In this document: in pieces, positions 1,113 to 30,339 of the stretch
Position numbering within the stretch: the stretch's first letter is position 1
Layout of the letters: each line of letters starts with the position of its first letter
Assembly: GCF_000020025.1 (NCBI RefSeq)
Contig: NC_010628.1
Span: 2,820,001 to 2,852,000 of the forward strand
DNA: 32,000 nucleotides
From: Nostoc punctiforme PCC 73102
GTDB taxonomy: Bacteria > Cyanobacteriota > Cyanobacteriia > Cyanobacteriales > Nostocaceae
Direction: 5' to 3'
Program-made: the position numbers and the translations under genes
The notes under the pieces: generated by a model
The model's database searches: none
What the model saw: the letters and a program-made list of their open reading frames with translations, nothing else
What the model was told of the DNA's origin: nothing

Positions 1113-3446
1113 ATGACTCGTTTATCCAGCCCGATTGAAAACTTAAAAAGTTCCTATACAGTTGTAGTTATTGGTTCTGGTTATGGTGGTAGTATTGCCG
1201 CATCGCGTTTAGCACGAGCCGGACAGCAAGTGTGTATTTTAGAGCGAGGGAAAGAATTTCAACCTGGTGAATATCCCAAAACTCAAAGCAAAGCATTGGC
1301 ACAAATGCAGATAGATTTGCCACAACATCATCTAGGTTCGCACACAGCTTTGTATGACTTTCATGTGAATAAAGACATTAATGTCTTTATTGGTTGTGGA
1401 CTAGGTGGAACATCTTTAGTTAACGCCAATGTGTCATTACAAGCTGAACCGCGTGTATTTGCAGATTCACGCTGGCCAAAGGAATTGCGTGATGATGTCG
1501 GGACTTTATTAGCCGCAGGTTATCGTCGTGCAGAGGAAATGCTCAAACCTACTCCCTACCCTGAAAATTTTCCTCCACTACCAAAATTACAAGCTTTAGA
1601 AAAGTCGTCTAAATATTTGAATGAAAAGTTCTATCGTCCCCCCATCAATGTGACATTCCAAGATGGGGTGAATCATGTCGGTGTAGAACAAAACAAATGT
1701 AATCTCTGCGGTGATTGTGTTTCTGGCTGTAATAATAAAGCCAAAAACACCGTGTTGATGAATTACCTCCCAGATGCAAAAAACCACGGTGCAGAAATCT
1801 ATACACAAGTTTCCGTGCGACGAGTTGAACGTCAGGGGAATCGCTGGCTAGTCCATTACCAATTATTAAACACGGGACAAGAAAGCTTTAACGCTCCCAC
1901 AATGTTCGTCAGTGCTGATATTGTGATTCTGGCGGCTGGGACATTGGGATCTACAGAAATTTTGCTGCGTTCTCAAGCTGCTGGTTTAGCGGTATCTGAG
2001 AAATTGGGACATAATTTTACAGGCAATGGAGATGTTCTAGCTTTTGGCTATAACACCGAGCAAGTAATTAACGGTATTGGTTTTGGCGATCGCCCGGAGA
2101 ATGCCCAAGAACCAGTAGGGCCATGCATCACCGGTATCATAGATATGCGAGAACAGCCCCAATTAGATAACGGACTAGTTATTGAAGAAGGCTCAATTCC
2201 TGGAGGTCTGGCTGCTATATTACCCCAAACCCTTGCGGCGGCTGCCAAAATTTTAGGTAAAGACACCGACTCTGGTTTAGGCGATCGCATCGAAGAAAAA
2301 ATCCGCGAAGTTGAGAGTTTGACTCATGGTGCTTACACTGGTGCAGTCCGCAACACCCAAACCTACTTAGTCATGACCCATGATGATGCAGCCGGACAGA
2401 TGTACTTAGAAAATGACCGTCTCCGCATTAAATGGCAAGATGTAGGAAGCCAACCCATTTTTCAACGAGTCAATAATCGTCTTACAGAAGCCACCGAACC
2501 CCTAGGTGGTACACAAATTCCTAACCCCATTTGGTCTGATGCCTTTGGTCATGACTTAGTTACAGTCCATCCACTAGGAGGCTGTATCTTAGCGGAAGAT
2601 GCTGAACACGGTGTTGTCAACCATAAGGGACAAGTATTTGCTAGCAACCAAGGAACAAACGTCTACGAAAACTTATATGTCGCTGATGGTTCTATAGTTC
2701 CTCGGACATTAGGTGTAAATCCATTACTGACAATCTCTGCTCTAGCGGAACGCTGCTGTACCCTCATTGCTAAAGACCGGGGTTGGACGATTAATTATGA
2801 TTTGACTACCCCGCCCATAGTCAACGGTGACACTACCCGTTCTACCACAGTCGGTATTCAATTCACCGAGACCATGCGCGGCTACTTTTCTACCGCAGTC
2901 AAAGACGACAACTATCAGCCTGCATTCTGGCAAGGCAAACAAGACAACTCGCCTCTAGAGTTCACCGTTACAGTAATTGCCGATGACTTAGACAAACTAC
3001 TCAATGACCCCGAACACCTAGGGAAAATAGTTGGTATAGTTAAAGCCCCCATTTTATCACCAGAAGCCCTAACCGTCACCAATAGCGATTTTAATTTGTT
3101 TGTTGTCCAACAAGGCCAACAAAACACCAGACAAATGCGTTATCGCTTACACATGATGACGCAATCAGGACAACGTTATTACTTGAAAGGCTTCAAGCAA
3201 ATTCATGATGACCCAGGATTCGATGTTTGGTCTGACACCACCACACTATTCATCACCGTTTATGAGGGCGACAGTGAAAATGATCCCATCGTTGGTCAAG
3301 GCATTCTCAAAATTCAGCCGATGGACTTCATCAAACAAATGACCACTATGAAAGTTACCAACGCAGATACTATTGGGGAACGCCTACAAGCAATAGATAG
3401 ATTCAGTCGTTTCTTTGCCGGCACTTTAGCGGAAGTCTACATTTAA
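1113..3446 (+). CDS. ChoD/cholesterol-oxidase-like GMC family FAD oxidoreductase with an extra C-terminal domain
   Basis: The ORF spans 1095-3446, with TTG at 1095 and ATG at 1104 and 1113; AAGGA at 1100-1104 favours 1113. Motifs: VVVIGSGYGGS (GxGxxG FAD fold), GCGLGGTSLVNANV, the Cys cluster CNLCGDCVSGCNNKAKNT, and C-terminal HPLGGC...VADGSIVP, as in GMC oxidoreductases. The last ~195 aa (nt ~2850-3443) are homologous to the C-terminus of the patatin protein at 6114-7655. Confidence 0.85.
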   Translation: MTRLSSPIENLKSSYTVVVIGSGYGGSIAASRLARAGQQVCILERGKEFQPGEYPKTQSKALAQMQIDLPQHHLGSHTALYDFHVNKDINVFIGCGLGGTSLVNANVSLQAEPRVFADSRWPKELRDDVGTLLAAGYRRAEEMLKPTPYPENFPPLPKLQALEKSSKYLNEKFYRPPINVTFQDGVNHVGVEQNKCNLCGDCVSGCNNKAKNTVLMNYLPDAKNHGAEIYTQVSVRRVERQGNRWLVHYQLLNTGQESFNAPTMFVSADIVILAAGTLGSTEILLRSQAAGLAVSEKLGHNFTGNGDVLAFGYNTEQVINGIGFGDRPENAQEPVGPCITGIIDMREQPQLDNGLVIEEGSIPGGLAAILPQTLAAAAKILGKDTDSGLGDRIEEKIREVESLTHGAYTGAVRNTQTYLVMTHDDAAGQMYLENDRLRIKWQDVGSQPIFQRVNNRLTEATEPLGGTQIPNPIWSDAFGHDLVTVHPLGGCILAEDAEHGVVNHKGQVFASNQGTNVYENLYVADGSIVPRTLGVNPLLTISALAERCCTLIAKDRGWTINYDLTTPPIVNGDTTRSTTVGIQFTETMRGYFSTAVKDDNYQPAFWQGKQDNSPLEFTVTVIADDLDKLLNDPEHLGKIVGIVKAPILSPEALTVTNSDFNLFVVQQGQQNTRQMRYRLHMMTQSGQRYYLKGFKQIHDDPGFDVWSDTTTLFITVYEGDSENDPIVGQGILKIQPMDFIKQMTTMKVTNADTIGERLQAIDRFSRFFAGTLAEVYI

Positions 3447-3457
3447 CTTTAGGAGAT

Positions 3458-3527
3458 AGGGGGGCAGGAGGCAGGGGGCAGGGGGCAGGGAACAGGGGGA
3501 GCAGGGGAGAATTCGTAATTCGTAACT
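3458..3527. repeat. G-rich heptamer-type short tandem repeats (GGGGCAG variants) followed by AATTCGT x2
   Basis: Read directly: ggggggcaggaggcagggggcagggggcagggaacagggggagcaggggaga attcgtaattcgtaact. This is typical Nostocales intergenic STR. Confidence 0.7.
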
Positions 3528-3533
3528 CTTCAC

Positions 3534-3630
3534 GGGCTGAACCTTAGCTATCCGCTAACAGCACTCCTCATTGGCTAAACCTTAGCTATCCGCTAATAGC
3601 ACGGGCTAAACGCCCCGCTATCGCTAACGG
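3534..3630. repeat. Three degenerate ~30-38 nt direct repeats (gggctRaaccttagctatccgctaaYagcac)
   Basis: Copies at about 3534-3565, 3573-3602 and 3603-3630. They lie in the spacer between the oxidoreductase and hydrolase genes. Confidence 0.6.
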
Positions 3631-3674
3631 AACTGTTTTGCCCAATGCCCTAATCTTTTAACAAATCTATCAAA

Positions 3675-4724
3675 ATGAACACCACAACATATACTCAATC
3701 TTTACAAGAAAGAATAGTACCTTTTACTAGCAAAGATGGCTTTGAATGTAACTTAATTAACGTTAGAGGTGAAAAGCCTCCTTCTAAATCGCCTGTATTA
3801 CTAGCGCATGGTGCAGGAGTCAGAGCAAATATCTTTCGCGCTCCTGTGGATACTAATATAGTTGATTACTTAGTTGCTCATGGTTATGACGTATGGTTAG
3901 AAAACTGGCGTGCCAGTATTGACTTAAATCCTAATCATTGGACACTTGACCGAGCCGCAGTGAATGACCATCCACAAGCGGTGAAAACAATTGTCGAAGA
4001 GACGGGTTATGAAAAGATCAAAGCTATCATCCATTGTCAGGGATCTACTAGTTTCATGATGTCTGTGGTGGCTGGCTTAGTCCCACAAGTCAAAACTATT
4101 ATCAGCAATGCCGTTTCACTGCATCCGATTGTACCTTCATGGTCATCTTTCAAAATTAATTTTGCAGTACCAGCCGTCAATTTCCTCACCGATCATTTAA
4201 ACCCACAATGGCAAATAGATTCACCAAGTCTAGCTGCAAAAATCATCTCTCTGGTCGTGGGTCTTACCCATCACGAATGTAATAATTCAGTCTGTAAACA
4301 AGTTAGCTTTACTTATGGGACTGGCTTCCCGGCATTGTGGGAACACGCCAACCTCAACGAAGCCACCCACGAATGGCTAAAGCAGGAATTCGCCTATGTG
4401 CCGCTCAGTTTTTTCGCACAAATGTCTCAGTGCATCAATCGTGGACATCTAATTTCTGTTGATAACTTCCCCAATTTCCCAAAAGATTTTATTGCCCAAC
4501 CACCAAAAACCGATGCCCGTATTGCATTTTTTGCTGGGCAACTTAACCGTTGCTTTCTCCCACAAAGTCAGATAGAAACTTTTAAATATTTTGACTCTCT
4601 GCGTCCTAGTTACCATGCTTTACACGTTCTGGATAACTACAGTCATTTAGACATATTTATGGGTAAGAATGCAGCCAAAGATGTGTTTCCCTTAATGCTT
4701 GCAGAATTAGAAAAGACTGTTTGA
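3675..4724 (+). CDS. alpha/beta-fold hydrolase (lipase/esterase-like) with an atypical nucleophile elbow
   Basis: 349-aa ORF. It has PVLLAHGAGVRANIF (oxyanion region), IIHCQGSTSFM where GxSxG is expected, and a C-terminal YSHLDIFMG (candidate catalytic His). Confidence 0.75.
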   Translation: MNTTTYTQSLQERIVPFTSKDGFECNLINVRGEKPPSKSPVLLAHGAGVRANIFRAPVDTNIVDYLVAHGYDVWLENWRASIDLNPNHWTLDRAAVNDHPQAVKTIVEETGYEKIKAIIHCQGSTSFMMSVVAGLVPQVKTIISNAVSLHPIVPSWSSFKINFAVPAVNFLTDHLNPQWQIDSPSLAAKIISLVVGLTHHECNNSVCKQVSFTYGTGFPALWEHANLNEATHEWLKQEFAYVPLSFFAQMSQCINRGHLISVDNFPNFPKDFIAQPPKTDARIAFFAGQLNRCFLPQSQIETFKYFDSLRPSYHALHVLDNYSHLDIFMGKNAAKDVFPLMLAELEKTV

Positions 4725-4796
4725 AAAGTGCAGATTCCATTCTCTAGACCTGTGTTACCTCCCTCCACCAATAAATTTAATTATGTGTGAAAAAAT

Positions 4797-5705
4797 ATGA
4801 TACCTCAACGTTTAAAACAACAAACAGGACTTTATGCCCTAGTTGATGGCATACCTTTTCAGTTACCCGTTAATTCTGAACAGACACCAGCATTGATGGC
4901 GGTATTTCCGATTAACGCCGATCGCGCTAAAGAATTGATCCTAGCCAAAGAAGTACATCCTCTGCGACTATGGAATAATCAGGGGTTGTTAGTAATCACA
5001 GTGATTAATTATCAGATTACTGACATTGGTAAATACATCGAATTTAGTATTGCGATCGCCTGCACTCATGGCGCAAAACCAGCCCCGCCATTACTACCTG
5101 GTTTATTGATGCAACAGTACGGCACTGGGCAGTATGTACTTGATTTACCTGTTAGTACCGAAATTTCTGTCAAAGGGGGTAAAGGAATTTGGGGAATGCC
5201 CAAACATCAAGCTAACTTGGACTTTGTGATTGGCGATCGCACTGTCAGCAGTCAATATGATTTAGATGGGCAACTAGTGATGAAAATTGAAGTTGCCAAA
5301 CCCGCCAAAGCTTGGTTTCCCCTGAAAATGGGTGCAGCAAACTACTGTGCATTTCGCGGAATGTTGATGAAATCCGTGATTTACTTTCAAGGGAAATTGG
5401 GATTTTCGCTGTTTAAACCAGGTTCAGCCAAACTTACCATAGGCGATCATCCCCGTATCCAATCACTAAAACACCTAGAGATTAGCCCCGAACCTATATT
5501 TACAGGCTTTTTCCCGGAAATCACAGGGATGCTAGATGACCATTTGGAGAGTTGGTTTCTTGGCTACGACACACCCCCCACACAACAACCAGAAGGTTTA
5601 GAAAGTGTAGTTAATTTAGGTTTGGGTCAAGAATGGCTACCAGCGCCAAAGGCTTTGCCCAAGGATGATCAAGCCGAGATGTATGTAGTACCAATTAAAA
5701 ATTAA
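4797..5705 (+). CDS. acetoacetate decarboxylase (ADC)-like family protein
   Basis: 302-aa ORF. GKYIEFSIAI and VKGGKGIWGMPKHQANLDF resemble the Y-x-E and GRExWGxPKK motifs of the ADC family. The size fits. It starts 72 nt after the upstream gene. Confidence 0.6.
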   Translation: MIPQRLKQQTGLYALVDGIPFQLPVNSEQTPALMAVFPINADRAKELILAKEVHPLRLWNNQGLLVITVINYQITDIGKYIEFSIAIACTHGAKPAPPLLPGLLMQQYGTGQYVLDLPVSTEISVKGGKGIWGMPKHQANLDFVIGDRTVSSQYDLDGQLVMKIEVAKPAKAWFPLKMGAANYCAFRGMLMKSVIYFQGKLGFSLFKPGSAKLTIGDHPRIQSLKHLEISPEPIFTGFFPEITGMLDDHLESWFLGYDTPPTQQPEGLESVVNLGLGQEWLPAPKALPKDDQAEMYVVPIKN

Positions 5706-5713
5706 TCAAAAAT

Positions 5714-6133
5714 ATGATGAATAACGGTAAAGTACTCCACTTATCATTAATTGGCATTGCCATTTTCACCATTGTGAGTGGATTGTTGCAAATGGTTTTG
5801 CCTAGTTTGGTACTCTACATTGTCTCAGCAGAAGTAACCCCGACTAGCCAGCATTTTTTTGCCATCATCGGTATGTTTATGCTGCTGTTTAACGGCGCAC
5901 TGTTACAAGCATTAATCAGCCCACAACCCCAACCTATTGTCTTAATTTGGGCAGGATTACAAAAATTTGGTGCTTCAATAACCGTTTGTTTGGCTGTTAT
6001 CAGGCTAATTTTTTCCCCATTCGCGCTGCTAATTGCTGGTTTTGACCTGTTATCAGGAGTATTAATTTTCTGGTACTTGTTTCGCTTGCGTACTTTTACA
6101 CCAGGATACACTTATGAGCAACCAACCGCATAA
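5714..6133 (+). CDS. small integral membrane protein (about 4 TM segments), function unknown
   Basis: 139-aa hydrophobic ORF. It starts 8 nt after the ADC-like gene and overlaps the patatin gene start by 20 nt. Confidence 0.6.
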   Translation: MMNNGKVLHLSLIGIAIFTIVSGLLQMVLPSLVLYIVSAEVTPTSQHFFAIIGMFMLLFNGALLQALISPQPQPIVLIWAGLQKFGASITVCLAVIRLIFSPFALLIAGFDLLSGVLIFWYLFRLRTFTPGYTYEQPTA

Positions 6134-7655
6134 ACCTTACGGCACTCCTGAACCAACATACTCAGGGAATAAACGTTCCTTGATTTTAGCTGGTGGTGGA
6201 ATGCGTGTAGCTTACCAAGCTGGAGCTATCCGCGCCTTAATCGAATCAGGACTGTGTTTTAATCATGCGGATGGTACTTCCGGCGGTACGATGAATTTAG
6301 CAATGCTGCTATCTGGACTATCGCCGATTGAGATGTGCGATCGCTGGCAGACTTTGAATGTTAAAGATTTTGTCTCCTTTATCCCTCTAGAAAAATACCT
6401 CAAAGCCTGGGATTTGTTATCTATGGGAGATGCAGATGGCATTATCGATCGCGTTTTCCCCCACTTGGGAATTGATATCAGCAAAATCAATGCCTCGGAG
6501 GGAATGCAAGGTACATTTAATGTTTGCAACTTTACCCACAAAACTAATGAAGTCATTCCCCACGATCGCTTAGATTTAGATTTATTGGTTGCAGGGATTT
6601 CTCTCCCCATCTTTATGCCACCTGTACAAAAAGGTGATTATCTATACATGGATTCCGTGTGGATTAAAGATGTTAATCTCATGGAAGCGGTGCGCCGGGG
6701 TGCAGATGAACTTTGGGTATTGTGGTGCATTGGCAATAGTAGCGAATATCAAACGGGAATTTTTAATCAATATGTCCACATGATGGAACTGAGTGCGAAC
6801 GGGGCATTTTTTGAAGAGTGCGATCGCATCAATGAAATCAACCAGAGAATTTTGCAAGGGGAGACAGTCTACGGACATACCCAACCGATCAAACTCCACC
6901 TCATCAAACCCGCTTATCCTTTACCTCTTGATCCTGATTACTATTTGGGAAACATTGATGGTGCAACTTTGGTTGATATGGGTTACGCCGATGCTAAACA
7001 ATATTTGCAAACCATGTCACCCGCAGGATTGCCCTTCCAGCCAGACGTGACCCGAATGCACAATAATTTGCCAGGAATGACTTTCCGCGAAAGCATGGCG
7101 GGTGCGTTTGTTTTAAATGAGACTGACCCGATTCAGGGTGCAGCAAAAGGCAAAGCGCACAATTCCTCACTCTCATTGCAACTGACCATTAACATTTGTG
7201 ACTTAAAACGTTTTTTGGGTGATACTACTTTTACTGCTAGTATTGCTGGTAACATTAGTTTTGCGAATTTTGGCGAACACATTCCCTTCAAAAGAGGCGT
7301 GTTTAACCTGTTTGCTCATGACCATAATCCCGGATATAAATACATTACTTATGAACTTGCTTTTGAACATGGTAATCAAGATTACTACTTAGTAGGCAAG
7401 AAAGAACTGCATAACGATCCGGGATTTGATTTGTGGCAAGACATGACAACTATCTATACTTACCTACATCAAGGTACAGATAACAACAGTCCCATTATTG
7501 GTTCAGGAATTTTAACCCTAGATGTGGGTGACGTAGCCAAGTGCGTTTCCGGGTGGCGAATTACTAACGCCAAGTCACTGACAGAGAAAACTACATTATT
7601 GGCAGAGTTTGGTAGTTTTTTCTGGGGCAATATTTGGGAAACTTACCAACCGTAA
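6114..7655 (+). CDS. patatin-like phospholipase with the same C-terminal domain as the GMC oxidoreductase
   Basis: LILAGGGMRVAYQAG (GGGxR oxyanion motif), GTSGG (GxSxG serine) and YMDSVW (candidate Asp of the dyad). The C-terminal ~190 aa (nt ~7070-7652) align with 2850-3443, for example HNDPGFDLWQDMTTIY against HDDPGFDVWSDTTTLF. Confidence 0.85.
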   Translation: MSNQPHKPYGTPEPTYSGNKRSLILAGGGMRVAYQAGAIRALIESGLCFNHADGTSGGTMNLAMLLSGLSPIEMCDRWQTLNVKDFVSFIPLEKYLKAWDLLSMGDADGIIDRVFPHLGIDISKINASEGMQGTFNVCNFTHKTNEVIPHDRLDLDLLVAGISLPIFMPPVQKGDYLYMDSVWIKDVNLMEAVRRGADELWVLWCIGNSSEYQTGIFNQYVHMMELSANGAFFEECDRINEINQRILQGETVYGHTQPIKLHLIKPAYPLPLDPDYYLGNIDGATLVDMGYADAKQYLQTMSPAGLPFQPDVTRMHNNLPGMTFRESMAGAFVLNETDPIQGAAKGKAHNSSLSLQLTINICDLKRFLGDTTFTASIAGNISFANFGEHIPFKRGVFNLFAHDHNPGYKYITYELAFEHGNQDYYLVGKKELHNDPGFDLWQDMTTIYTYLHQGTDNNSPIIGSGILTLDVGDVAKCVSGWRITNAKSLTEKTTLLAEFGSFFWGNIWETYQP

Positions 7656-7830
7656 ATTCCAAATTAAACCTCTGCTGAGTGGAGTATAAAGGTTTAAGGG
7701 TGTAGGGAAAATACATTTTCATGTTTAGTTGTGCAATTTTCTCTTGAATCCTTCCCGCCTTCTCCCAAAGGGAGACGCTAAAAGCGATCTGCCTTCTGCC
7801 TTCTTTCACAACTTTTCAGGAGAAATTAAC

Positions 7831-10035
7831 ATGAGCGATCGCCTTATGCCTTTACCCTCATCATTCTTATTCGGTGTTGCAACTGCTGACCATCAGTGTG
7901 AAGCTTACGATTCCCAGTTTGAAGATATTCGGGATGTATGGGAACGTCGTCGCGGTATTACGGTCAGGGGTCGAGCCACTGACTTTTGGCATCGCTACGC
8001 TGAAGATATTGCCTTAGCTCAGTCCCTTGGTTGCAAGTCTTTCCGGTTTTCGATCGCTTGGTCACGGGTAGAACCTGAACCCGGTAAGTTCAGTGAAGAA
8101 GCTTTTGAACATTATCGCCAAGTAATTGAAACTATCAGATCGCATGGTTTAGAACCAATTGTAACTCTGCATCACTTCACCCATCCCATCCATGTAGAAG
8201 CACGGGGGGGTTTAACTGCGCCAGAATTTCCAGCTATTTTTGCTAACTACGCCACAGAAGTCGCCAAGCGTTTGGGTCATTTGGCACGTTATTGGATTAG
8301 CTTTAACGAACCTAGCCAATTAATTTACGGTTACATCAAGCCTTGGTGGGAAAGAGCCTATTTTATGCCCCCAGGTTTAGAGCGCGGTGCAACTATTGCC
8401 GATCAAATGACCGCCGTGCAGAAACTCATGCGGAATTTGTTTGTCTCCCATACACGCGCCAGAAATATCCTCAAAGAGTACAACCCAGATGCTCAAGTGG
8501 GAGCAAACCCCATGTTATTGGGTCTGCCTCTATGGTTGCAGAAATTGGTGGATCACAATGTCACTAATCTGCGTCGTCCCGAAGATATGATTTCTCAGGG
8601 TAAACGTTTTACTGAGCGCAGTTTGTTGGAAAAAGGAAAAGTTGATGTTGTCATTGCTAATTTGACTATTACCGCCGAGCGACAACAGCAAGTAGCGTTT
8701 TCGGAAACTTATTATCAGGCGGGGCAATTTCTCTTAGTCAAAGCCACCAGTCCCATTCAGCAACCAGAAAATCTGGCTCAGAAAACAGTAGCAGTTATCA
8801 AAAGTGCGACGGCAGAATCTACCATAGAATACCTGTTACCCAGAGTTGAAGTCAAAGTAGTAGAAGATTACGCTGATGCCTTGCAAGCCTTGGATTATGA
8901 GCAAGTGAGCGCCATTCTTGCAGATGACACAATTCTCTTGGGTCTGATGAGACAACAACCAGGGCAATATCGACTGGTGGGTAAAAATGGTGAAGGGCTG
9001 ACAGTAGAGAACTATGGCGCAGCTGTAGTTAAAGGCGATCGCGCCTTCTTGAATATTGTAGATACAGTAGTGCGACAGTTTAAAGAATCCGGGGCTTGGC
9101 AAGCTAGCTATAGTCATTACTTCCCTAATCAACCCGTCCCACCTGTACCGAAAATCGGCAGACGTTCAACCCTAGCTGACATCACCACAGGCGGATCTTC
9201 TAGTCCAACTATCGGACAGCCTCAACCCGGTACACCACTGCGACGCATTCAAGACCGTGGTTATTTAGTTGTCGCAGTCAAAGAAAACGTACCTGGGTTT
9301 GGCTACCGCGACCCCAAAACCGGAGAATTTAGCGGCTTAGAGATTGATTTAGCGCGTTTAATCGCCAAGCAAATCTTTGGCGATCCCAGCAAAGTGAAAT
9401 TTGTCGCCGTTTCCACCCAACAACGCTTACCCGTACTGCGATCGCTCACCCGCATCTTTGACCCAATTTTCAAGATTTTCAGCGTACTTTCCACATCACT
9501 GACAAGTAACTGGTGGCACTTAGGTATGGCTGGGAAATTACCCACATTCCTCTGTCCTCAAGAATGTGTAGGTCAACAAGATTTTGTTGGTTTTGACTAT
9601 TACTGGGGGATTAGCAATCTTCGACTCAACCGCATTCAACAATTAATGGATGCTGCTTTTGGACGTTTTAGTAATGCGCCAGTTTGGTCTGGTGTTCTCT
9701 ACGATATGCTCAAATTCCACGCCCAGTTATTCCCCGATAAAGAAATTATGATTATTGAGAATGGCTGTGTAGAAGTAGCCGATAAAGTCGTCAAGCGCGA
9801 AGACTACATTCGCCAGCATCTCCAACAAGTGCAACGCGCTCGTCAAGACGGGATAAACGTCATCGGTTACGTCTCCTGGTGCATCACCTCCAACCGCGAG
9901 TGGGGTCTGAAATTTGGCCCAGATAGCGATTTTGGACTATATCACATTGACCTAGATACAGACCCAGAACTCAAACGCCAACCAACCCCAGCCGCTAACT
10001 TATACCGCGATATCATCAAACAAAACAGCGTCTAA
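7831..10035 (+). CDS. glycoside hydrolase family 1 (beta-glucosidase-like) carrying an inserted, apparently circularly permuted solute-binding-protein (SBP_bac_3-like) domain
   Basis: ATG at 7831 is preceded by CAGGAG at 7817-7822; the longer ORF from 7729 lacks homology-like sequence. GH1 motifs: FLFGVATADHQCE, FRFSIAWSRVEP, LHHFTHP, FNEP (acid/base Glu codon 8308-8310), DFVGFDYYWG, IIENG (nucleophile Glu codon 9757-9759) and WCITSNREWG. The SBP-like segments lie between nt ~8635 and ~9445. Confidence 0.85.
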   Translation: MSDRLMPLPSSFLFGVATADHQCEAYDSQFEDIRDVWERRRGITVRGRATDFWHRYAEDIALAQSLGCKSFRFSIAWSRVEPEPGKFSEEAFEHYRQVIETIRSHGLEPIVTLHHFTHPIHVEARGGLTAPEFPAIFANYATEVAKRLGHLARYWISFNEPSQLIYGYIKPWWERAYFMPPGLERGATIADQMTAVQKLMRNLFVSHTRARNILKEYNPDAQVGANPMLLGLPLWLQKLVDHNVTNLRRPEDMISQGKRFTERSLLEKGKVDVVIANLTITAERQQQVAFSETYYQAGQFLLVKATSPIQQPENLAQKTVAVIKSATAESTIEYLLPRVEVKVVEDYADALQALDYEQVSAILADDTILLGLMRQQPGQYRLVGKNGEGLTVENYGAAVVKGDRAFLNIVDTVVRQFKESGAWQASYSHYFPNQPVPPVPKIGRRSTLADITTGGSSSPTIGQPQPGTPLRRIQDRGYLVVAVKENVPGFGYRDPKTGEFSGLEIDLARLIAKQIFGDPSKVKFVAVSTQQRLPVLRSLTRIFDPIFKIFSVLSTSLTSNWWHLGMAGKLPTFLCPQECVGQQDFVGFDYYWGISNLRLNRIQQLMDAAFGRFSNAPVWSGVLYDMLKFHAQLFPDKEIMIIENGCVEVADKVVKREDYIRQHLQQVQRARQDGINVIGYVSWCITSNREWGLKFGPDSDFGLYHIDLDTDPELKRQPTPAANLYRDIIKQNSV

Positions 10036-11454: not shown

Positions 11455-12185
11455 CTATGTTAAATTTGGATATAAACGCTCCATTTTTCGGCGAGCATCT
11501 TTGGTTTGAAAACCCCAATAAACACTAGCTTTTTGCTGATTACGTTTTTTCTCCCAAGCGGCAATCTCAGAAGTTAATGTTTCTGCATTAGGAATACGCC
11601 GTTCTAAACATTGGCGAGATAAAACAGATAATTCGATTTCTACCTGATTCAGCCCTTCGGGTTCGCCAGTTGCTTCAAGTCGGGGAACCCGCCCAACGCA
11701 CTGGCTCACCAAGAAGCGTGTTTAGGAGTATAGTGAAACTCTAACTTTTGAATAATTCGACGTGCTTCTTCTGGTGGAAAAACTTCATATAATGCATTGG
11801 GTGTATGAATATTCAAGTTATCAACTACTAAACGAATAACATCGGCATCTCGGTAGGAAACATCTACTAAATTTTTCATTTGTTTAGCAAAATCGGCTTT
11901 AGTTCGACGTTCTGTAACTTCGATATGCCGCCATCCAGCCAAGGGTTGAAAACATGCGAATAAATTTACTGTCCCGTTACGTTTATACTCAAAATCATAA
12001 CGTTCAGGTTGCTCTGGCTGTGGTGGCAAAGGAAGTCTTACTTTTTCTACTAATTGGTATGGACGTTCATCAAAGCAGACTACAGGGCGTTTAGGATCAT
12101 AAGGCTCATTGTATAAATCCAGCACATCTTCCATTCGGAAAACATATTCTGCGTTAACTTCAGGAATACACCATTGTTCTTTCAA
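11455..12185 (-). pseudogene. IS630-family transposase DDE domain, split by a 56-nt insertion
   Basis: ORF 11706-12185 ends ...HYTPKHASW, then a stop. ORF 11455-11712 resumes with LNQVEIELSVL after 56 extra nucleotides. The expected contiguous sequence is ...KHASWLNQVEIE..., so the domain is broken between the second Asp and the Glu of the catalytic triad. Confidence 0.8.
11653..11708 (-). repeat. 56-nt hairpin-containing mini-insertion inside the transposase gene
   Basis: On the minus strand the insert reads tgagccagtgcgttgggcgggttccccgacttgaagcaactggcgaacccgaaggg. It contains GGGTTC...GAACCC inverted repeats. Its length is not a multiple of 3 and it introduces a TGA. The boundaries are ambiguous by a few nt. 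Confidence 0.6.
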
Positions 12186-12622
12186 CCAAGGCTTAATTTC
12201 ATTTTTTTTAAAGTTTGACGTACTGTTTCATCTGAGATTGAATCTATGATACCAACGTTCACTAAATGATCTGCTAATAATTGCATTGTCCAACGCACTC
12301 TTCCTTCTGGCGGATTAGAACAAGCTGTTGCAATCAAAAATGCTTCTTGCTTTTCATCTAATTTTTTATGTTTTGGTGGATGAACTTCATCCTTTAAAGC
12401 AAAATCTAACCCTCCAATGACAAATTTTTCTCGTATTCGTTGCACTGTTGCAACATGCGCTCTAACTATGCTAGCGATCGCTTGATCCGTTTCTCCTTCG
12501 GAAGCCATCAAAAGAATGTTTGCACGGCTTATGGTTCTTGCCTTATGCTTACCTTTCTTAATTATCGATTGCAGTTGGGAAACTTCATCTTCATTCAAGT
12601 CAACAATGTACTTTTTTGCCAT
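12182..12622 (-). CDS. IS630-family transposase, N-terminal helix-turn-helix part (orfA)
   Basis: 146-aa ORF. It ends just after an A8 run (T8 at 12202-12209 on the + strand). The -1 frame continues as [14 protein letters not shown], the usual junction of IS630 transposases. Confidence 0.8.
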
Positions 12623-15060: not shown

Positions 15061-15399
15061 TCACTCCAACCCTAAATGGAGTTTGAGAGCAGCATCTACT
15101 AATTGCATCAACTCTTCATTTAAACTATTTACCACCTCTGACACAATCCTTCGCTTAGAAATTGTTCGTACCTGCTGCGCCTGTACTTTGGAAGCTAATG
15201 GTAAACCACTATTCTCTGGATTCAGTAAAACCTCGAACGGGTAAACACGGCTAACATTGGATGTAAGCGGTAAAATTGTTACCGTGCTAGCTGCACGATT
15301 ATTGGCATCATTACTGACTATCAGCACTGGGCGGCGTTTATCCATCTCAGAGCCTACAGCCGGACTGAGATTAGCGTAATAAATATCACCACGCTTCAT
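15061..15399 (-). CDS. mazF: type II toxin-antitoxin system toxin, PemK/MazF family endoribonuclease
   Basis: MKRGDIYYANLSPAVGSEMDKRRPVLIVSNDANN...ILPLTS matches the MazF/PemK N-terminal signature. It is 112 aa and overlaps the upstream antitoxin ORF by 14 nt. Confidence 0.9.
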   Translation of the reverse strand: MKRGDIYYANLSPAVGSEMDKRRPVLIVSNDANNRAASTVTILPLTSNVSRVYPFEVLLNPENSGLPLASKVQAQQVRTISKRRIVSEVVNSLNEELMQLVDAALKLHLGLE

Positions 15400-15610: not shown

Positions 15611-15897
15611 AGTCTTACCAAACAGTAGCAAGGATATTCTTACTTAACGGTAGTCTATAAAGTAGTAATAAATCAAGTACGAATTTCTCTATGTTGGGGT
15701 AGTGTGAAGGTGCTATACAAAGGCGAAATGCAAAAATCAATTCCTTAACTTTCCCTAACTTATCCTCATCGACTCCTAGAAATTTTACTAATAGAGTGAA
15801 AGTGTTCAAGAAAAACCGACTCTTGTCAAAGCCAAAACAAGCAGACCTTTCAGAAAATCTTGAAACAATTATTAGTGAAAACAAGGAGCAATTTATT

Positions 15898-16545
15898 ATG
15901 AAGAAATCTACTCTTGTCAAAGCAACAATGGGTGCTGTCTTATTGTTAACAACAGGTATATTCAGTGTTACCAATGTTAATTCGAGTCAGGCACATTCAG
16001 CAAACCAAAAACTCAGGTATGGACAAACATACAAGCTCGTTAATGGTTACGACAATTGGCAAGGAGGTTATTTAGACACGCGGGGAAGAGGCTGTTCTGA
16101 GAATCTGCTGTGTGTTTCTACAGCCAACAACCCCAACAGAGATAACGGTAGTGGGTCTTGGAAGATTCTATCAAAAACTGGCAAAACAGGAGTTGTTGAG
16201 TCGCTCGATGACGTTTACCTGCAAAATCAATACGATCGAGGTGCTGGTGGTTACTTAGACACGCGGGGAAGAAACTGTTCTGAGAATCTACTGTGTGTCT
16301 CTACAGCCAACAACCCCAACAGAGATAGTGGTAGCGGAACCTGGAAAATAATTTCTAAATACAAATCTTCAAATGACTTACGTGAAGATCAGCCTGTTCA
16401 ACTTGTGAATGGTTATGGTAATGGTCAAGGAGGTTACTTAGATACCAGAGGTAGAGGTTGTGATGGAAATTTGTTGTGTGTCTCAACGGCTGCTGGCGCA
16501 GATAGAGATAGTGGTAGCGGAACTTGGAAATTTATTAAGCATTGA
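15898..16545 (+). CDS. secreted protein built from three tandem 61-aa repeats, each with a Cys pair (beta-trefoil/ricin-B-like is inferred only)
   Basis: ATG at 15898 lies 9 nt after AAGGAG (15884-15889). The signal-peptide-like N-terminus is MKKSTLVKATMGAVLLLTTGIFSVTNVNSSQAHS. The motif GGYLDTRGRxC..NLLCVSTA....RDxGSGxWK recurs with a 183-nt period, at 16066, 16249 and 16432. Confidence 0.7.
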   Translation: MKKSTLVKATMGAVLLLTTGIFSVTNVNSSQAHSANQKLRYGQTYKLVNGYDNWQGGYLDTRGRGCSENLLCVSTANNPNRDNGSGSWKILSKTGKTGVVESLDDVYLQNQYDRGAGGYLDTRGRNCSENLLCVSTANNPNRDSGSGTWKIISKYKSSNDLREDQPVQLVNGYGNGQGGYLDTRGRGCDGNLLCVSTAAGADRDSGSGTWKFIKH

Positions 16546-26138: not shown

Positions 26139-28202
26139 ATGAGCGATCGCATAATTGGGCGCAAGAAATCAGCCGCATCAACTTTTACGAATCCGTCGCT
26201 TGCCTCACCAGGTATTCCGACACTAGCGAACCCAATACACGGCTTTGGTTCACAAATCAATACTGCCCCGCTCCAAACAGTAACTGAAGTAGCCCCAGAG
26301 CTTCAAGAGGCACAGTCTGCTGATGGGCAATTATTAGAACCAGAAGCGATCAAAGAAAAACCCCTTAGTCACGACATAAGTCGCATATCATTACGTCGTC
26401 CACAGCCAAAACTTACCGTTGGTCAGCCTGGAGACAAATACGAACAAGAAGCGGAGATGAATGCTCAGGCATTTACGCACAAGCAAGATGTTTACTTTGA
26501 TGCGGGGAAGGCTCCTACCCATAAATTGACTCATTTGGTGCAGCAAACTGGTGATGCAGCAAGCCATAAGGTTATTCAGCGCTATCAGGCAGGGGAATCA
26601 GGACATGGCTCAATAGAGAAAAAAGGCTTGATATTAGCTGGCTTCACTGCCGACGAAGCAGCAGAGGCTTATCTAGGTAATTGGATGCGTGATTTATCAC
26701 AACTCGGCCCAGATATGTTTCCTTTGGTGGAACTGCTGGGAATGGGGGAATTTGGCAAGCCAATCGACCAGAGTAAACTGGGAACCTATGTTCCTTCAGA
26801 ACACATGGATAATCCCGACGGAGGTAATACCGTTGAAGATCCGACTTCAACAACCACCGCAAAGGATGTTGATGCTCGTAATGAAAATAAAAAGCAACTA
26901 TCCGAATCCCAAAAGAAAGACCAAGAAGCAGCTGATGCAGCCTATGCCGAGATCAAAGCTGCCGCAGCAAAGAATCGTCTGCCAGCTTATATTGAGCGCG
27001 GCAAGTTTATGGCTAAGAGAAAATTGGTAGAGGCAATCAAAAAAGGTGATACATCAGAGGGACGGGAGGAGATGAGTAGTGCTTTACATGCTATAGAAGA
27101 TTATTTTTCTCATACCAACTTTACTGAAGCAGCCATCTGGGTACTGGCGAAGGAAAACCCAGCTAAATATAAGCCTCTGATGGCTAAGATGTCCCAGACA
27201 ACTTTAGGGATAGGTACAGCAACGGTGGGTGGATTAGATAAAAAAGGACTACCCCAAATTATCAGTGGCACTTATGTTGCAGGTGCTAACAACATGGTTA
27301 GTAAAATTGAATTACTCAAAACCGAACTAGAGAGTGGGGCTTTAACTGTAGCCTTAGTAAAAGGCTTGATGATGAAAGGAGGCATTACAGCAGATGTTCT
27401 TGCCAATAAGTTAGGTGAGAAGATGGGAGTTAAACCAATCTTCCGTACTGTTGAAGGTGGGATAGGTGCAGTAGTGGGTGGTGTAGAAGGAGCAGTTAAA
27501 GGTACTGCTAGCGGTGCGAGAACAGGCGGGGCGGCAGGTCGGAAAATCGGCGGGCTTTTTGGTACTCTTGGCGAAGTTGTGGGTGAAGAAATTGGCGAGC
27601 AAGTTGGTGGTGTAGTTGGCGGTGTATCCGGTGGTGTATCCGGTGCTAGAGCAGGCAAAGCCGCAGGTGAAGAAATGGGCGAACAGGATGCCGAAGCCAT
27701 TCTTAAAGCAGCTGGCTTTGCGATTAAAGGTGGTATGGTTGTAATTACGGCCGGGACTATGGCTACCTTACTTACACTCTTCCCAGTAATTGCAGCGGAT
27801 TTGGCAGCAGTTGTCAGTGTGGCGAAAAGTAAATTAGGACAAAAACTATTAGATGCTTATGCTGAGAAAAAAGTGGCGGAGTCCACTAAAGAGGCGAAAG
27901 CCAAAGGTTTGACTGGCCCCACTCACTCAGAGCTTGCCAAGGATGCTCCCGACCACCCGCTCTTTGATGCTTCTGCCTCGCTAGCTGTGGAGGCGGTGAA
28001 AGGAGTTGGTGTTGCCATGAAGGTAGCGTGGGCACAGAATAAGACGAATCCTCCATCGACAGAACCTGTTGGCACAGAGGCAGTTACGAACCAGGTTGAT
28101 AAATATGTCTGCGCTTTAGATGGTGATGGGTGGTGGCGACCCATTATCGAGAAACAAGCAACGGCGGCTGGGATTACTACTTCTGGTGGTGCAGACAATT
28201 AA
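26139..28202 (+). CDS. DUF4157-leader protein with truncated/degenerate peptidase motif, HET-C-like domain, glycine-zipper region and TM segment
   Basis: The leader PLSHDISRISLRRPQPKLTVGQPGDKYEQEAE is of the DUF4157 type. HKLTHLVQQTG replaces HELTHVVQQTG. HET-C-like motifs: GESGHGSIE, YLGNWMRDLSQL, LGTYVPSEHMDNPDGG and HAIEDYFSHTNFTEAAI. Gly-rich repeats lie at 27451-27693, and a hydrophobic segment GGMVVITAGTMATLLTLFPVIAADLAAVV follows. Confidence 0.8.
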   Translation: MSDRIIGRKKSAASTFTNPSLASPGIPTLANPIHGFGSQINTAPLQTVTEVAPELQEAQSADGQLLEPEAIKEKPLSHDISRISLRRPQPKLTVGQPGDKYEQEAEMNAQAFTHKQDVYFDAGKAPTHKLTHLVQQTGDAASHKVIQRYQAGESGHGSIEKKGLILAGFTADEAAEAYLGNWMRDLSQLGPDMFPLVELLGMGEFGKPIDQSKLGTYVPSEHMDNPDGGNTVEDPTSTTTAKDVDARNENKKQLSESQKKDQEAADAAYAEIKAAAAKNRLPAYIERGKFMAKRKLVEAIKKGDTSEGREEMSSALHAIEDYFSHTNFTEAAIWVLAKENPAKYKPLMAKMSQTTLGIGTATVGGLDKKGLPQIISGTYVAGANNMVSKIELLKTELESGALTVALVKGLMMKGGITADVLANKLGEKMGVKPIFRTVEGGIGAVVGGVEGAVKGTASGARTGGAAGRKIGGLFGTLGEVVGEEIGEQVGGVVGGVSGGVSGARAGKAAGEEMGEQDAEAILKAAGFAIKGGMVVITAGTMATLLTLFPVIAADLAAVVSVAKSKLGQKLLDAYAEKKVAESTKEAKAKGLTGPTHSELAKDAPDHPLFDASASLAVEAVKGVGVAMKVAWAQNKTNPPSTEPVGTEAVTNQVDKYVCALDGDGWWRPIIEKQATAAGITTSGGADN

Positions 28203-28365: not shown

Positions 28366-30339
28366 ATGAGCAATGACGGACAACAAGCTTCTGGGCATCT
28401 ACGCATAGTTCAGCACCAAAAAGCAGGTATATCCACTGTTCTAAATCCGTCCCTTACCTCATCAACTATTCCCACGCTGGCTTCTCCAATGCGTGGCTTT
28501 GGTTTACAAACAAATAATCCTCCAATTCAAAGACTAACTGAGGCATCAACTGAGCTTCAAGAAGTGCAGTCTGCTGATGAGCAATTTTTGGAACCAGAAG
28601 CCGTCAAACAACAGCCCCTTAGTCATGATATTAGTCGCATATCTTTGCATCGTCCCCAGGCAAAACTCACCGTTGGTGCGCCAGACGACCATTATGAGCA
28701 GGAAGCCGATCGAGTTGCCGATCGGATTATGCGAATGGCTGAACCAGAGCCAATAGGTTTACAGAATACACAGACTCAAGACCAAGTGCAAACTAAGCCT
28801 CTAGCCTCTGCCATAACTCCTTTAGTGCAACGGGAGGCAATGCCAGAAGAGGAAGAGGAACTACAAACGAAACTTATTAATGCACCTATCCAAAGAGAGA
28901 TTTTACCAGAAGAAGAATTACAAACTAAGCGATCGCTACAACTCGCTACCAATGACAGCTTCCAAACTGGGGACAACTTTGAGAGTCGCCTAAACAGCAG
29001 TGAAGGTGGAGGAAGCCCGTTACCAGATACAGTGCGTTCTTTCATGGAACCACGTTTTGGTACAGATTTTAGTCAAGTACGCGTACATACAGGTACTCAA
29101 GCGGTACAAATGAATCAGGATTTAAATGCCCAGGCATTTACGCACCAGCAAAACATTTTCTTTGGTGCGGGTAAGTCACCAGGTAATGATGCATTAACCG
29201 CCCATGAACTGACTCATGTGGTGCAGCAGACAGGAACAGCCCAGAGAAAATTGATTCAACGGGCAATTAACCCCACATACGACCTGACACACGGAATTTT
29301 TGAAGTAAATGCCACACCCAACGGCGCGAGTCTACCGATTACTATTCGTTTTAAACCCAAAACCACTGCTCCCTACTCTAACCAGATTGGACTGATTCAG
29401 ATTGTCCGTCTGACAAATGCTACAGGTACAAATGTCGAACCTCAGTCTTTACCTGCTGCTAGTGGTGCTAGCCTCCGTACCACTGCTGATGCAACCACGG
29501 GAGTTGAAGGCGGATATTTCACTGATGCGCTGCATAATGATGCACCTGCTCATGGTGGTACAGGAACCAATGCCCCAGCCGGAAGTGCATTACCTGCCCA
29601 GTACCCCTTTGGCAACGACCCAGCCCAACCCAATCCCGCAACCCCTGGACTTTCACGGCCCTCTTCTAGTGGTGCAAGCGGAGCCACTATTGGTTACAAA
29701 CGCTCCGATGACCCCACTGATATCAAAGCAGCAGAACTAACCGATGCTCCCGGAGGGGCTGGTGAGTTCAACTTCGACTTTCAGACGGTGGCTAAAGGAG
29801 AAGACACCATGACAACTTACGGAGCGCTTCATTGGGGCTTCCAAATCCGTGCTGGCAAAGTTGAGAACGATCGTGCATCAGCACAAGATGGTCAATCCGC
29901 CACCTTTGATGCAGCTTTGCAGAAGCACCAGGATTTTTACGTACATGAACCAGTCATTTTTTACTTTGATTTCGACAGCGACCAACTGAGTTCCAGCGAA
30001 ACAGGCAAGATTGATACATTCTTAGACTACCTGCGGCGATTCCCTGATGTCAAAGTAACTCCTGAAGGCTTTGCTGACAGGCGTGGCGGTGCATCTGGGC
30101 ACAACCTGGATCTATCTTTACGCAGAGCGCAGGCAGTGGGAGCAGCCCTGCGTGCTAAGGGTGTAGCTGAAGCTCAAATTAGTGCTGTTACTATCGGCTC
30201 TGGTTCAACCGAAGACTTTACCCCTGATGCCACTACTAACCAAGATACAGAAGCAAATCGCCGGGGTAATCGCCGAGTCGTCTTGAGCTTTGAGCATGTG
30301 CCAGCAGCAGCTCCAGCAGGGGGAGGAGGGACACCGTGA
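28366..30339 (+). CDS. DUF4157 zinc-metallopeptidase-like protein with an unassigned central domain and a C-terminal OmpA-like peptidoglycan-binding domain
   Basis: KLTVGAPDDHYEQEADRVADRIM, LPDTVRSFMEPRFGTDFSQVRVHTG and NAQAFTHQQNIFFG...LTAHELTHVVQQTG give a full DUF4157 with HExxH. The C-terminus FYFDFDSDQLS...GFADRRGG...NLDLSLRRAQAV...NRRGNRRVVLSF is the OmpA_C pattern. Confidence 0.85.
   Translation: MSNDGQQASGHLRIVQHQKAGISTVLNPSLTSSTIPTLASPMRGFGLQTNNPPIQRLTEASTELQEVQSADEQFLEPEAVKQQPLSHDISRISLHRPQAKLTVGAPDDHYEQEADRVADRIMRMAEPEPIGLQNTQTQDQVQTKPLASAITPLVQREAMPEEEEELQTKLINAPIQREILPEEELQTKRSLQLATNDSFQTGDNFESRLNSSEGGGSPLPDTVRSFMEPRFGTDFSQVRVHTGTQAVQMNQDLNAQAFTHQQNIFFGAGKSPGNDALTAHELTHVVQQTGTAQRKLIQRAINPTYDLTHGIFEVNATPNGASLPITIRFKPKTTAPYSNQIGLIQIVRLTNATGTNVEPQSLPAASGASLRTTADATTGVEGGYFTDALHNDAPAHGGTGTNAPAGSALPAQYPFGNDPAQPNPATPGLSRPSSSGASGATIGYKRSDDPTDIKAAELTDAPGGAGEFNFDFQTVAKGEDTMTTYGALHWGFQIRAGKVENDRASAQDGQSATFDAALQKHQDFYVHEPVIFYFDFDSDQLSSSETGKIDTFLDYLRRFPDVKVTPEGFADRRGGASGHNLDLSLRRAQAVGAALRAKGVAEAQISAVTIGSGSTEDFTPDATTNQDTEANRRGNRRVVLSFEHVPAAAPAGGGGTP

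Follow-up and report, generated by a model that had tools for sequence, protein, structure and literature searches.

A five-gene cluster of Nostoc punctiforme as a candidate form of a widespread bacterial lipid-processing system

A stretch of 32,000 nucleotides (nt) from Nostoc punctiforme PCC 73102 (contig NC_010628.1, positions 2,820,001 to 2,852,000), analysed here as a whole and called the window, carries five adjacent genes, O1 to O5. They encode a ChoD-like GMC flavoprotein (O1), an acid-lipase-like alpha/beta-fold protein with a Cys in its nucleophile elbow (O2), a protein of the acetoacetate decarboxylase (ADC) superfamily (O3), a small membrane protein (O4), and a patatin (O5). The genes very probably make up one functional system, and a lipid is, with somewhat less assurance, the likely substrate. 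The fuller reading, which is about evenly balanced between being right and wrong, is that the five genes represent the reduced Nostoc form of a multi-enzyme system, spread by horizontal transfer and associated with the membrane on its cytoplasmic side, which acts on an ester-linked lipid. Somewhat short of even weight is given to the broadest claim: that this is an unrecognised and widely distributed bacterial lipid pathway, in which a new, perhaps catalytic, beta-barrel domain family is fused interchangeably to five enzyme classes, and in which the Cys-containing acid-lipase-like protein and the Schiff-base ADC-like protein form an obligatory core with a chemistry undescribed for either family.

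A gene set conserved across bacteria

All five genes lie on the + strand: O1 at 1113..3446 (777 residues (aa) counted from ATG), O2 at 3675..4724 (349 aa), O3 at 4797..5705 (302 aa), O4 at 5714..6133 (139 aa), and O5 at 6114..7655 (513 aa). Relatives of O3 number more than 3000 in the databases, and even those from outside the cyanobacteria share 63-71% identity with the Nostoc copy. With one genome taken per GTDB species (about 185,000 species), close relatives of O3 occur at 514 loci. The gene set was counted in the 80 of these 514 loci that are most similar to O3, of which 76 are non-redundant, using tblastn of the window proteins together with an unbiased clustering of all open reading frames (ORFs). 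Denominators are the loci with enough flanking sequence, and tblastn under-detects genes for small transmembrane (TM) proteins.

The 80 loci come from at least 12 phyla: Cyanobacteriota, Nitrospirota, Acidobacteriota, Pseudomonadota (alpha, beta and gamma), Actinomycetota (Solirubrobacterales), Chloroflexota, Verrucomicrobiota, Gemmatimonadota, Myxococcota, Bacteroidota, Rhodothermota, and Fibrobacterota. An O2-type gene stands directly upstream of the O3-type gene in every case (74/74 loci). A patatin gene is found downstream in 53 of 64 loci and an O4-type TM gene in 45 of 64, while 45/48 have a GMC gene and 44/48 the C-terminal domain discussed below; all five genes occur together in 31 of 48. 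The GMC gene takes two forms, either an upstream orthologue of about 780 aa that carries the C-terminal domain or a downstream paralogue of about 530 aa that does not. The pair formed by the alpha/beta hydrolase (ABH) with the Cys nucleophile and the ADC-like protein is the invariant core of the set, and the patatin and the ChoD-like GMC enzyme are its nearly constant partners. Thus, the quintet that the original prediction had singled out in the window is co-conserved far beyond the cyanobacteria (76 loci, at least 12 phyla).

Because the arrangement recurs across phyla, the adjacency of these genes is far beyond chance. A fortuitous juxtaposition of unrelated lipid genes, with no function in common, has nothing specific in its favour apart from the variable position of O1, which lies upstream or downstream of the core. 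It is refuted by synteny kept across at least 12 phyla and by domain fusions that join all of the enzyme classes, and is left with almost no probability.

The comparison also reveals a larger system, which the original prediction had overlooked. Its additional members are a metallophosphoesterase, often with a C-terminal multi-TM region (31/48 loci); a DUF1772/anthrone-oxygenase-like membrane protein of about 160 aa encoded between the ADC and TM genes (34/64); a DUF4345 protein (13/48); and a DUF6765 protein (3/48). No copy of any of them is found in the window, and none of these accessory proteins, the cluster metallophosphoesterases included, has an NCBIfam assignment. In Trichormus (L005 7819-8883) and Xenococcus, the DUF6765 gene sits at the place that in the window is taken up by a 228-nt repeat spacer, and in another Nostoc a DUF1772-like gene lies between the ADC and TM genes (L006 10866-11426). 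Since the window holds no remnants of the DUF6765 gene, the DUF1772-like gene, or the metallophosphoesterase gene that are present in relatives, the N. punctiforme cluster is read as a reduced form.

Other versions of the set depart further from the Nostoc arrangement. A variant in Pyrinomonadaceae (L014, about 7-16 kb; L052, 11-19.5 kb) has no patatin; after its ABH-ADC pair come genes for an OYE flavin oxidoreductase, for a pair of RoxA-like dihaem cytochromes c, and for small TM proteins, along with those for a metallophosphoesterase and a GMC enzyme. This composition is a hint of oxidative reactions with unsaturated or isoprenoid lipids as substrates. A minimal module, found for example in Sphingomonas sanxanigenens, consists of the C-terminal domain, a GMC enzyme, a metallophosphoesterase, and an ABH, with neither ADC nor patatin.

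Within the window, the ORF list agrees exactly with the layout first proposed, that is, five same-strand genes with spacers of 228 nt (O1-O2), 72 nt (O2-O3), and 8 nt (O3-O4) and a 20-nt overlap (O4/O5). The tight packing around O4 (8-nt gap, 20-nt overlap) was counted towards a single unit. For O1, a TTG at 1095 is a possible alternative start; homologues begin at the position of the ATG. The 228-nt spacer (3447..3674) is indeed filled with repeats, as had been stated: GGGGCAG-type heptamers run from 3451 to 3507, and a 38-nt tandem duplication occupies 3525-3600. Public short-read contigs that carry O2 begin 75-175 nt upstream of that gene, inside this spacer. The GC content of the cluster (41-46%) is unremarkable relative to the rest of the window. 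A promoter and terminator scan returned fewer sites than were found in shuffled sequence, and an Rfam scan of the whole window gave zero riboswitch or leader matches.

Directly after the patatin gene, at 7729-10035 (+), lies a gene for a GH1 beta-glucosidase, an arrangement seen in 6/6 Nostocaceae loci and in no other phylum. The GH1 TIM barrel is made up of aa 42-259 and 658-768, retains the NEP and ENG catalytic motifs, and is split by about 390 aa that contain SBP_bac_3 lobes of the periplasmic-binding-protein type; the protein may be a ligand-gated glycosidase. This neighbour raises the possibility that the Nostoc version acts on a glycoside. The GH1 gene and an SDR gene, both downstream of O5, were considered as core members and rejected, since they co-occur with the cluster only in Nostocaceae.

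A C-terminal domain common to the enzymes

The C-terminal portions of O1 (about 205 aa, 2829..3446, +) and O5 (about 200 aa, 7044..7655, +) are paralogous, with 32% identity over 206 residues (BLASTP, E 2e-27). This shared region, here called the C-domain, had escaped the original prediction. It matches no Pfam family even at E<=1 when 35 members are scanned. The AlphaFold2 (AF2) model, with a predicted local distance difference test (pLDDT) score of 95, is a beta-barrel, a structure of nine to ten strands with short helices and, at the C-terminus, one long helix. A Foldseek search of the model against the PDB yielded no significant match (best E 0.03, TM-score at most 0.35). The weak matches that were returned are barrels that bind hydrophobic ligands, namely DUF3237, lipocalins, AttH, LmcA, and MppR. 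Several polar residues of the C-domain are invariant or nearly so (Glu13, His62, Tyr104, Lys122, Asp135), and it carries the motif DDPGFDxWxDTTTL.

A profile search for the C-domain over 1.84 billion representative sequences retrieved 2743 clusters, whose architectures were taken from Pfam scans and from direct reading of the matches. With GMC enzymes, the domain is found as GMC-Cdom, Cdom-GMC, and GMC-Cdom-ABH(-ABH). With alpha/beta hydrolases, it is found as Cdom-ABH, which has the same Cys elbow (A-H-C-Y-G), and as ABH-Cdom, in an orthologue of O2 (P0379). An orthologue of O3 is an ADC-Cdom fusion (P0109), patatins occur as both patatin-Cdom and patatin-Cdom-Cdom, and a metallophosphoesterase occurs as Cdom-metallophosphoesterase-TM (P0187). 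Stand-alone C-domain proteins of about 200 aa exist as well. In the source annotations, the fusion proteins bear generic names. When the C-domain was compared with the ADC alignment by hhalign, only the P0109 fusion was found again, a result that is mute on remote homology.

Every soluble enzyme class of the system, that is, the GMC enzyme, the Cys-ABH, the ADC-like protein, the patatin, and the metallophosphoesterase, is therefore fused somewhere to the C-domain. Fusion of all these classes to the same domain constitutes strong Rosetta-stone evidence that they serve one common process.

The proteins and their likely chemistry

The N-terminal portion of O1 (about 565 aa, 1113..2807, +) is a ChoD-like GMC flavoprotein domain, as judged by Pfam, NCBIfam, PDB relatives, and motifs. 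It passes both Pfam thresholds for this family (GMC_oxred_N, 61.3 bits, cut-off 23; GMC_oxred_C, 44.8 bits, cut-off 24.6). Its relatives in the PDB are cholesterol oxidases of Streptomyces and Brevibacterium (1b4v, 4u2l, and others), with E values of 8e-21 to about 1e-20. The top NCBIfam model is likewise a cholesterol oxidase (NF058674), at 155.3 bits against a cut-off of 850; by this whole-protein score, which is under the curated cut-off of the equivalog, O1 does not qualify as a cholesterol oxidase proper. The sequence GSGYGG is present for binding of flavin adenine dinucleotide (FAD), and the motifs HPLGG and G-x-NP-x2-TI are at least 90% conserved among 59 homologues. Their His and Asn would be the counterparts of ChoA His447 and Asn485.

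Thus, the FAD domain of O1 is most similar to cholesterol oxidases of the ChoA/ChoD type and retains their catalytic His and Asn motifs, whereas its additional 205-aa barrel domain and a Cys-rich motif set it apart from them. The latter, C-N-L-C-G-D-C-V-S-G-C (aa 196-207, window 1698-1733), follows the pattern C-x2-C-G-x-C-x2-G-C, lies within the GMC domain, and has the ferredoxin-like spacing Cx2Cx2Cx3C. It is kept in most homologues, with the second Cys swapped in some, and a metal or iron-sulphur site at this place is possible.

O2 (3675..4724) was assigned as an acid-lipase-like alpha/beta-fold protein from conservation, an AF2 model, and Foldseek. It shows 100% identity to a protein listed in UniRef under Nostoc punctiforme ATCC 29133/PCC 73102. 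Its Abhydrolase_1 score of 23.8 bits falls just below the Pfam cut-off of 25.8; homologues exceed the cut-off, and many that are 63-73% identical to O2 carry PF00561. The AF2 model (pLDDT 86, lowest in the cap domain) has an alpha/beta hydrolase fold and matches more than 1200 PDB alpha/beta hydrolases at E<=1e-3. Its nearest structural neighbours are the dog and human gastric lipases and the human lysosomal acid lipase/cholesteryl-ester hydrolase (TM-score 0.73-0.76, E 1e-17 to 1e-15). RhlA and PhaZ are also among the neighbours, at a lower level. In sequence, the matches to acid lipases reach E 5e-4 at most.

Despite the likeness in fold to the gastric and lysosomal acid lipases, the G-x-S-x-G elbow with its Ser nucleophile is absent from O2, which has a Cys in its place. 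The elbow reads I-H-C-Q-G, and Cys121 is invariant in every aligned homologue (sets of 30 and 50), as are His324 (Y-S-H-L-D) and the cap motif HHEC-N-VC. Simple ester hydrolysis by O2 is thus not a given, because the elbow holds a Cys rather than a Ser; an acid-lipase-like fold with a Cys nucleophile points to thioester intermediates. The polyhydroxyalkanoate (PHA) synthase PhaC likewise has a Cys in its elbow and an invariant His downstream, and there are weak NCBIfam PhaC matches to O2. These reach 22.4 bits against a cut-off of 365, however, and PhaC differs further in that the O2 elbow is I-H-C-Q-G, that no triad Asp was identified in O2, and that PhaC structures lie outside the top 50 fold matches.

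The similarities of O1 and O2 invite a more specific version of the lipid reading, the breakdown of an ester formed by a polycyclic or long-chain alcohol (for example steryl, hopanoid-like, wax, or carotenoid, or a glycoside in Nostocaceae), in which the acid-lipase-like enzyme would free the alcohol and the cholesterol-oxidase-like enzyme would convert it to a ketone. In its favour, O2 is nearest in fold to lysosomal acid lipase/cholesteryl-ester hydrolase and O1 nearest in sequence to cholesterol oxidases, and in each of the six Nostocaceae loci, the gene immediately after the cluster encodes a beta-glucosidase. However, O1 scores far under the cholesterol-oxidase cut-off, all of the proteins appear cytoplasmic, no GH1 gene accompanies the cluster beyond Nostocaceae, and the patatin, the metallophosphoesterase, and the ADC-like protein are left unexplained. 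In addition, sterol synthesis is not known from most of the host phyla. This version is unlikely. A bacterial operon that pairs a cholesterol oxidase with an acid lipase has not been described, and in this cluster, the proteins seem to be cytoplasmic.

O3 (4797..5705) was assigned to the ADC superfamily from Pfam, alignment, and mapping onto profile coordinates. It passes the cut-off of ADC PF06314 (49.2 bits against 29.8), and the match covers only positions 20-140 of the 238-position profile, the N-terminal half. Glu82, in the motif Y-I-E-F-S, and Lys136-His137, in G-M-P-K-H, are invariant, the Glu and the Lys among 20 diverse homologues. The reference was the C. acetobutylicum ADC sequence, which agrees with PDB 3BH2 at 243/244 residues, and equivalent residues were read through the Pfam profile coordinates rather than from a structural superposition. 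O3 residues 110-167 align without gaps to profile positions 83-140, which places Lys136 at position 109, while ADC Lys115 is at 108/109; Glu82 falls at about position 70, and ADC Glu76 is at 69/70. His137 stands where ADC has Lys116. No basic residue is conserved in O3 at the position of ADC Arg29 (about aa 28-32, S-E-Q-T-P).

In clostridial ADC, Arg29 binds the carboxylate of the substrate. By the Arg29 equivalent and the Lys115-Lys116 pair, O3 does not qualify as a true acetoacetate decarboxylase; it is read as a Schiff-base enzyme of the ADC superfamily and is probably not a classical acetoacetate decarboxylase. Because of the half-length profile match and the missing basic residue at the Arg29 position, O3 looks at least as much like the non-decarboxylase branches of the superfamily as like a true decarboxylase. 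No sequence relative of O3 was detected in the PDB with either a single-sequence or a profile query. With the ADC superfamily (clostridial ADC, 3BH2; the non-decarboxylase members MppR and Sbi00515), it shares the PF06314 match, and its Glu82 and Lys136 stand at the positions of ADC Glu76 and Lys115; its family differs in being always paired with a Cys alpha/beta-fold protein.

These properties bear on the route put forward by the original prediction, in which release of an acyl or 3-hydroxyacyl group is followed by oxidation to a 3-keto acid by the GMC enzyme and decarboxylation by the ADC-like enzyme, giving a methyl ketone. In a related idea, the Cys enzyme would serve to turn over a polyester that is PHA-like or made of 3-hydroxyacyl units. 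Consistent with this proposal, O3 retains the Schiff-base Lys and the Glu of ADC, the GMC enzyme preserves its active-site His and Asn, and O2 has a Cys elbow as in PHA synthases, weak PhaC matches, and RhlA and PhaZ as structural neighbours. Against it stand the lack of a conserved basic residue in O3 where Arg29 would bind the carboxylate, a match confined to half of the ADC profile, the lack of any PDB sequence relative of O3 even by profile, PhaC scores far under the cut-off (22 versus 365 bits), and the fact that nothing in the data identifies the substrate as a 3-hydroxyacyl compound. Taken as a rival, this route is rather improbable; taken as one realisation of the general lipid scheme, conversion of a beta-keto acid to a methyl ketone is possible but not favoured.

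The same features of O3 could fit a cluster that makes a small molecule from a lipid. Here, the GMC enzyme would oxidise a fatty alcohol to an aldehyde, O3 would be an aldolase-dehydratase, as are Sbi00515 and MppR, and the Cys enzyme would be an acyltransferase. ADC-superfamily members without the decarboxylase residues are aldolase-dehydratases, and O3 has no Arg29 equivalent; alpha/beta enzymes with a Cys nucleophile are often transferases, and the acyltransferase RhlA is among the structural neighbours of O2. The patchy spread, suggestive of horizontal gene transfer (514 of about 185,000 species), would also be in keeping with such a cluster. However, no conserved core genes for a polyketide synthase, nonribosomal peptide synthetase, coenzyme A ligase, or transporter lie nearby, and patatins and metallophosphoesterases are degradative in known systems. 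A biosynthetic role is quite improbable.

O4 (5714..6133) is a small protein with about four TM segments, as judged by hydropathy, and has the conserved motifs GMFM.LFGG and QK.GA. Pfam and NCBIfam profile searches provided no family assignment, and O4 stands as a separate family. Kinship of O4 with DUF4345, with DUF1772-like proteins, or with the other small TM families of related clusters was considered and rejected, hhalign being negative.

The N-terminal portion of O5 (about 305 aa, 6114..7028, +) is a patatin domain, as indicated by Pfam (71.3 bits, cut-off 27.7) and by conservation in 35 homologues. These keep the GGGxR oxyanion loop (LAGGGMRV), the G-T-S-G-G elbow, and the Asp in Y-x-D-x-V-W. 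O5 thus resembles the patatin-like phospholipases ExoU, PlpD, CapV, and NTE in its Ser-Asp dyad motifs and oxyanion loop. Unlike theirs, its C-terminus is a soluble barrel of about 200 aa that is common to GMC, ABH, ADC-like, and metallophosphoesterase proteins, rather than the POTRA/outer-membrane barrel, the 4-helix bundle, or the cyclic-nucleotide sensor of other patatin proteins. With the qualifications given above, the five protein assignments that had been made from motifs are upheld by profile searches. No N-terminal signal peptide is obvious in the soluble cluster proteins, whose translations were read by eye rather than with a predictor.

Patatins are known effectors in defence systems, CapV of CBASS being an example, and a patchy distribution across phyla at high identity suggests horizontal transfer; together, these observations could speak for a system of the anti-phage or toxin type, with the patatin as an effector that destroys the membrane. 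However, a PADLOC scan of the five proteins gave nothing but a trivial 16-bit match to a Rossmann motif, and genes for a sensor, nucleotide cyclase, NTPase, or nuclease are lacking from the cluster. Its partner proteins are oxidoreductases and lipases typical of metabolism, and the flanking genes are housekeeping genes rather than defence islands. A defence function is accordingly most improbable.

Proposed function and relation to known systems

The preferred reading, a system for an ester-linked lipid, can be put together as a series of steps whose exact order is doubtful. The patatin and/or the acid-lipase-like Cys enzyme, the latter through a thioester intermediate, would remove or transfer acyl groups, and in full versions of the system the metallophosphoesterase would take off a phospho-head group. 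The GMC flavoenzyme would then turn an exposed hydroxyl of the lipid into a carbonyl, on which Lys136 of the ADC-like enzyme could form a Schiff base, leading to decarboxylation, retro-aldol/aldol chemistry, or isomerisation. The C-domain barrel might hold the common hydrophobic substrate or dock the enzymes onto the TM proteins. The whole system would work from the cytoplasmic side of the membrane, dismantling or remodelling an ester-linked lipid. In the Nostoc proteins, the catalytic residues are intact (GGGxR, GxSxG, and Asp of the patatin; HPLGG and NP of the GMC enzyme; Cys121 and His324 of O2; Glu82 and Lys136 of O3). The link to lipids comes from the fold of O2, nearest to acid lipase/cholesteryl-ester hydrolase, and from the sequence of O1, nearest to cholesterol oxidases.

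Several points weigh against this reading. The best NCBIfam model for O1 is that of an enzyme whose cut-off it falls far below, and O3 combines a half-length ADC match with the lack of a basic residue at the Arg29 position. In O2, the homologue alignment did not identify the acidic residue of the triad. Moreover, the number of invariant Cys and His residues in O2 is unusually high (HHEC-N-VC at aa 199-207, window 4269-4295, as well as His45, His99, His150, His224, His232, Cys293, and His314); these could mean a metal site in the cap and a different chemistry. The C-domain, given its invariant polar residues, may be catalytic rather than a module for binding or docking. A separate promoter for O2 to O5 could lie inside the 228-nt spacer, and, as the window has neither the DUF1772-like gene nor a metallophosphoesterase, the Nostoc version may have a narrower function than the complete system. 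Finally, the restriction to the 80 of 514 loci most similar to O3 biases the gene-set counts towards close relatives.

Each enzyme of the cluster belongs to a known superfamily, and the whole can be described as a putative bacterial operon whose enzymes have familiar folds and act on lipids. The original prediction did not recognise the gene set as a described pathway, and this still holds. No published pathway with this gene set was found in the literature searched, which was mostly without subscription journals, so that this is absence of evidence only, and no equivalog-level NCBIfam assignment exists for the cluster proteins of the window. The lipid-droplet 'lipase' Npun_F5141 (PMC4500132), of 310 aa, is a different protein.

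Two known processes offer partial parallels. Methyl-ketone synthesis in tomato, by the thioesterase MKS2 and the alpha/beta-fold decarboxylase MKS1, overlaps with the proposed scheme only in concept, in that a lipid ester is cleaved and CO2 is then lost; the cluster proteins are unrelated in sequence to MKS1 and MKS2, and a hotdog thioesterase is lacking. In the remodelling of lipids under phosphate stress, which involves the metallophosphoesterase PlcP, the parallel is that fuller clusters of the present type set a metallophosphoesterase beside acyl hydrolases. In contrast, the cluster metallophosphoesterases have no NCBIfam assignment, and none is present in the window.

If the genes act together, as their conservation implies, they represent a lipid-processing pathway that is present in hundreds of sequenced species and has to date not been assigned. 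Its hosts include soil Acidobacteriota, Nitrospira, Burkholderiales, Solirubrobacterales, Chloroflexota, and Nostoc. If the proposal is true, it would bring to light a domain family not described before, a further use of the ADC fold, and a Cys variant of the acid-lipase fold. With a copy in N. punctiforme PCC 73102, a strain amenable to genetics, the proposal can be put directly to the test.

The remainder of the window contains several features apart from the cluster. At 11706-12622 (-) is an IS630-type transposase split into a helix-turn-helix (HTH) ORF and a DDE_3 ORF with a 4-nt overlap, which is either frameshift-dependent or decayed. A gene for a PemK/MazF-type toxin is found at 15061-15399 (-), and no obvious antitoxin ORF of at least 60 aa is listed upstream of it. 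A 249-aa protein encoded at 15796-16545 (+) has three internal repeats of about 55 aa (GGYLDTRGRGC...LLCVSTA...DSGSGTWK) and no Pfam family. Farther along, two adjacent genes at 26139-28202 (+) and 28366-30339 (+) encode proteins with a common N-terminal region of about 110 aa; the first has a Het-C-like domain, and the second has an eCIS_core (DUF4157) zincin-like domain and an OmpA C-terminal domain. The gene for the eCIS_core/OmpA protein is followed by one for a HEAT-repeat protein at 30336-31013.

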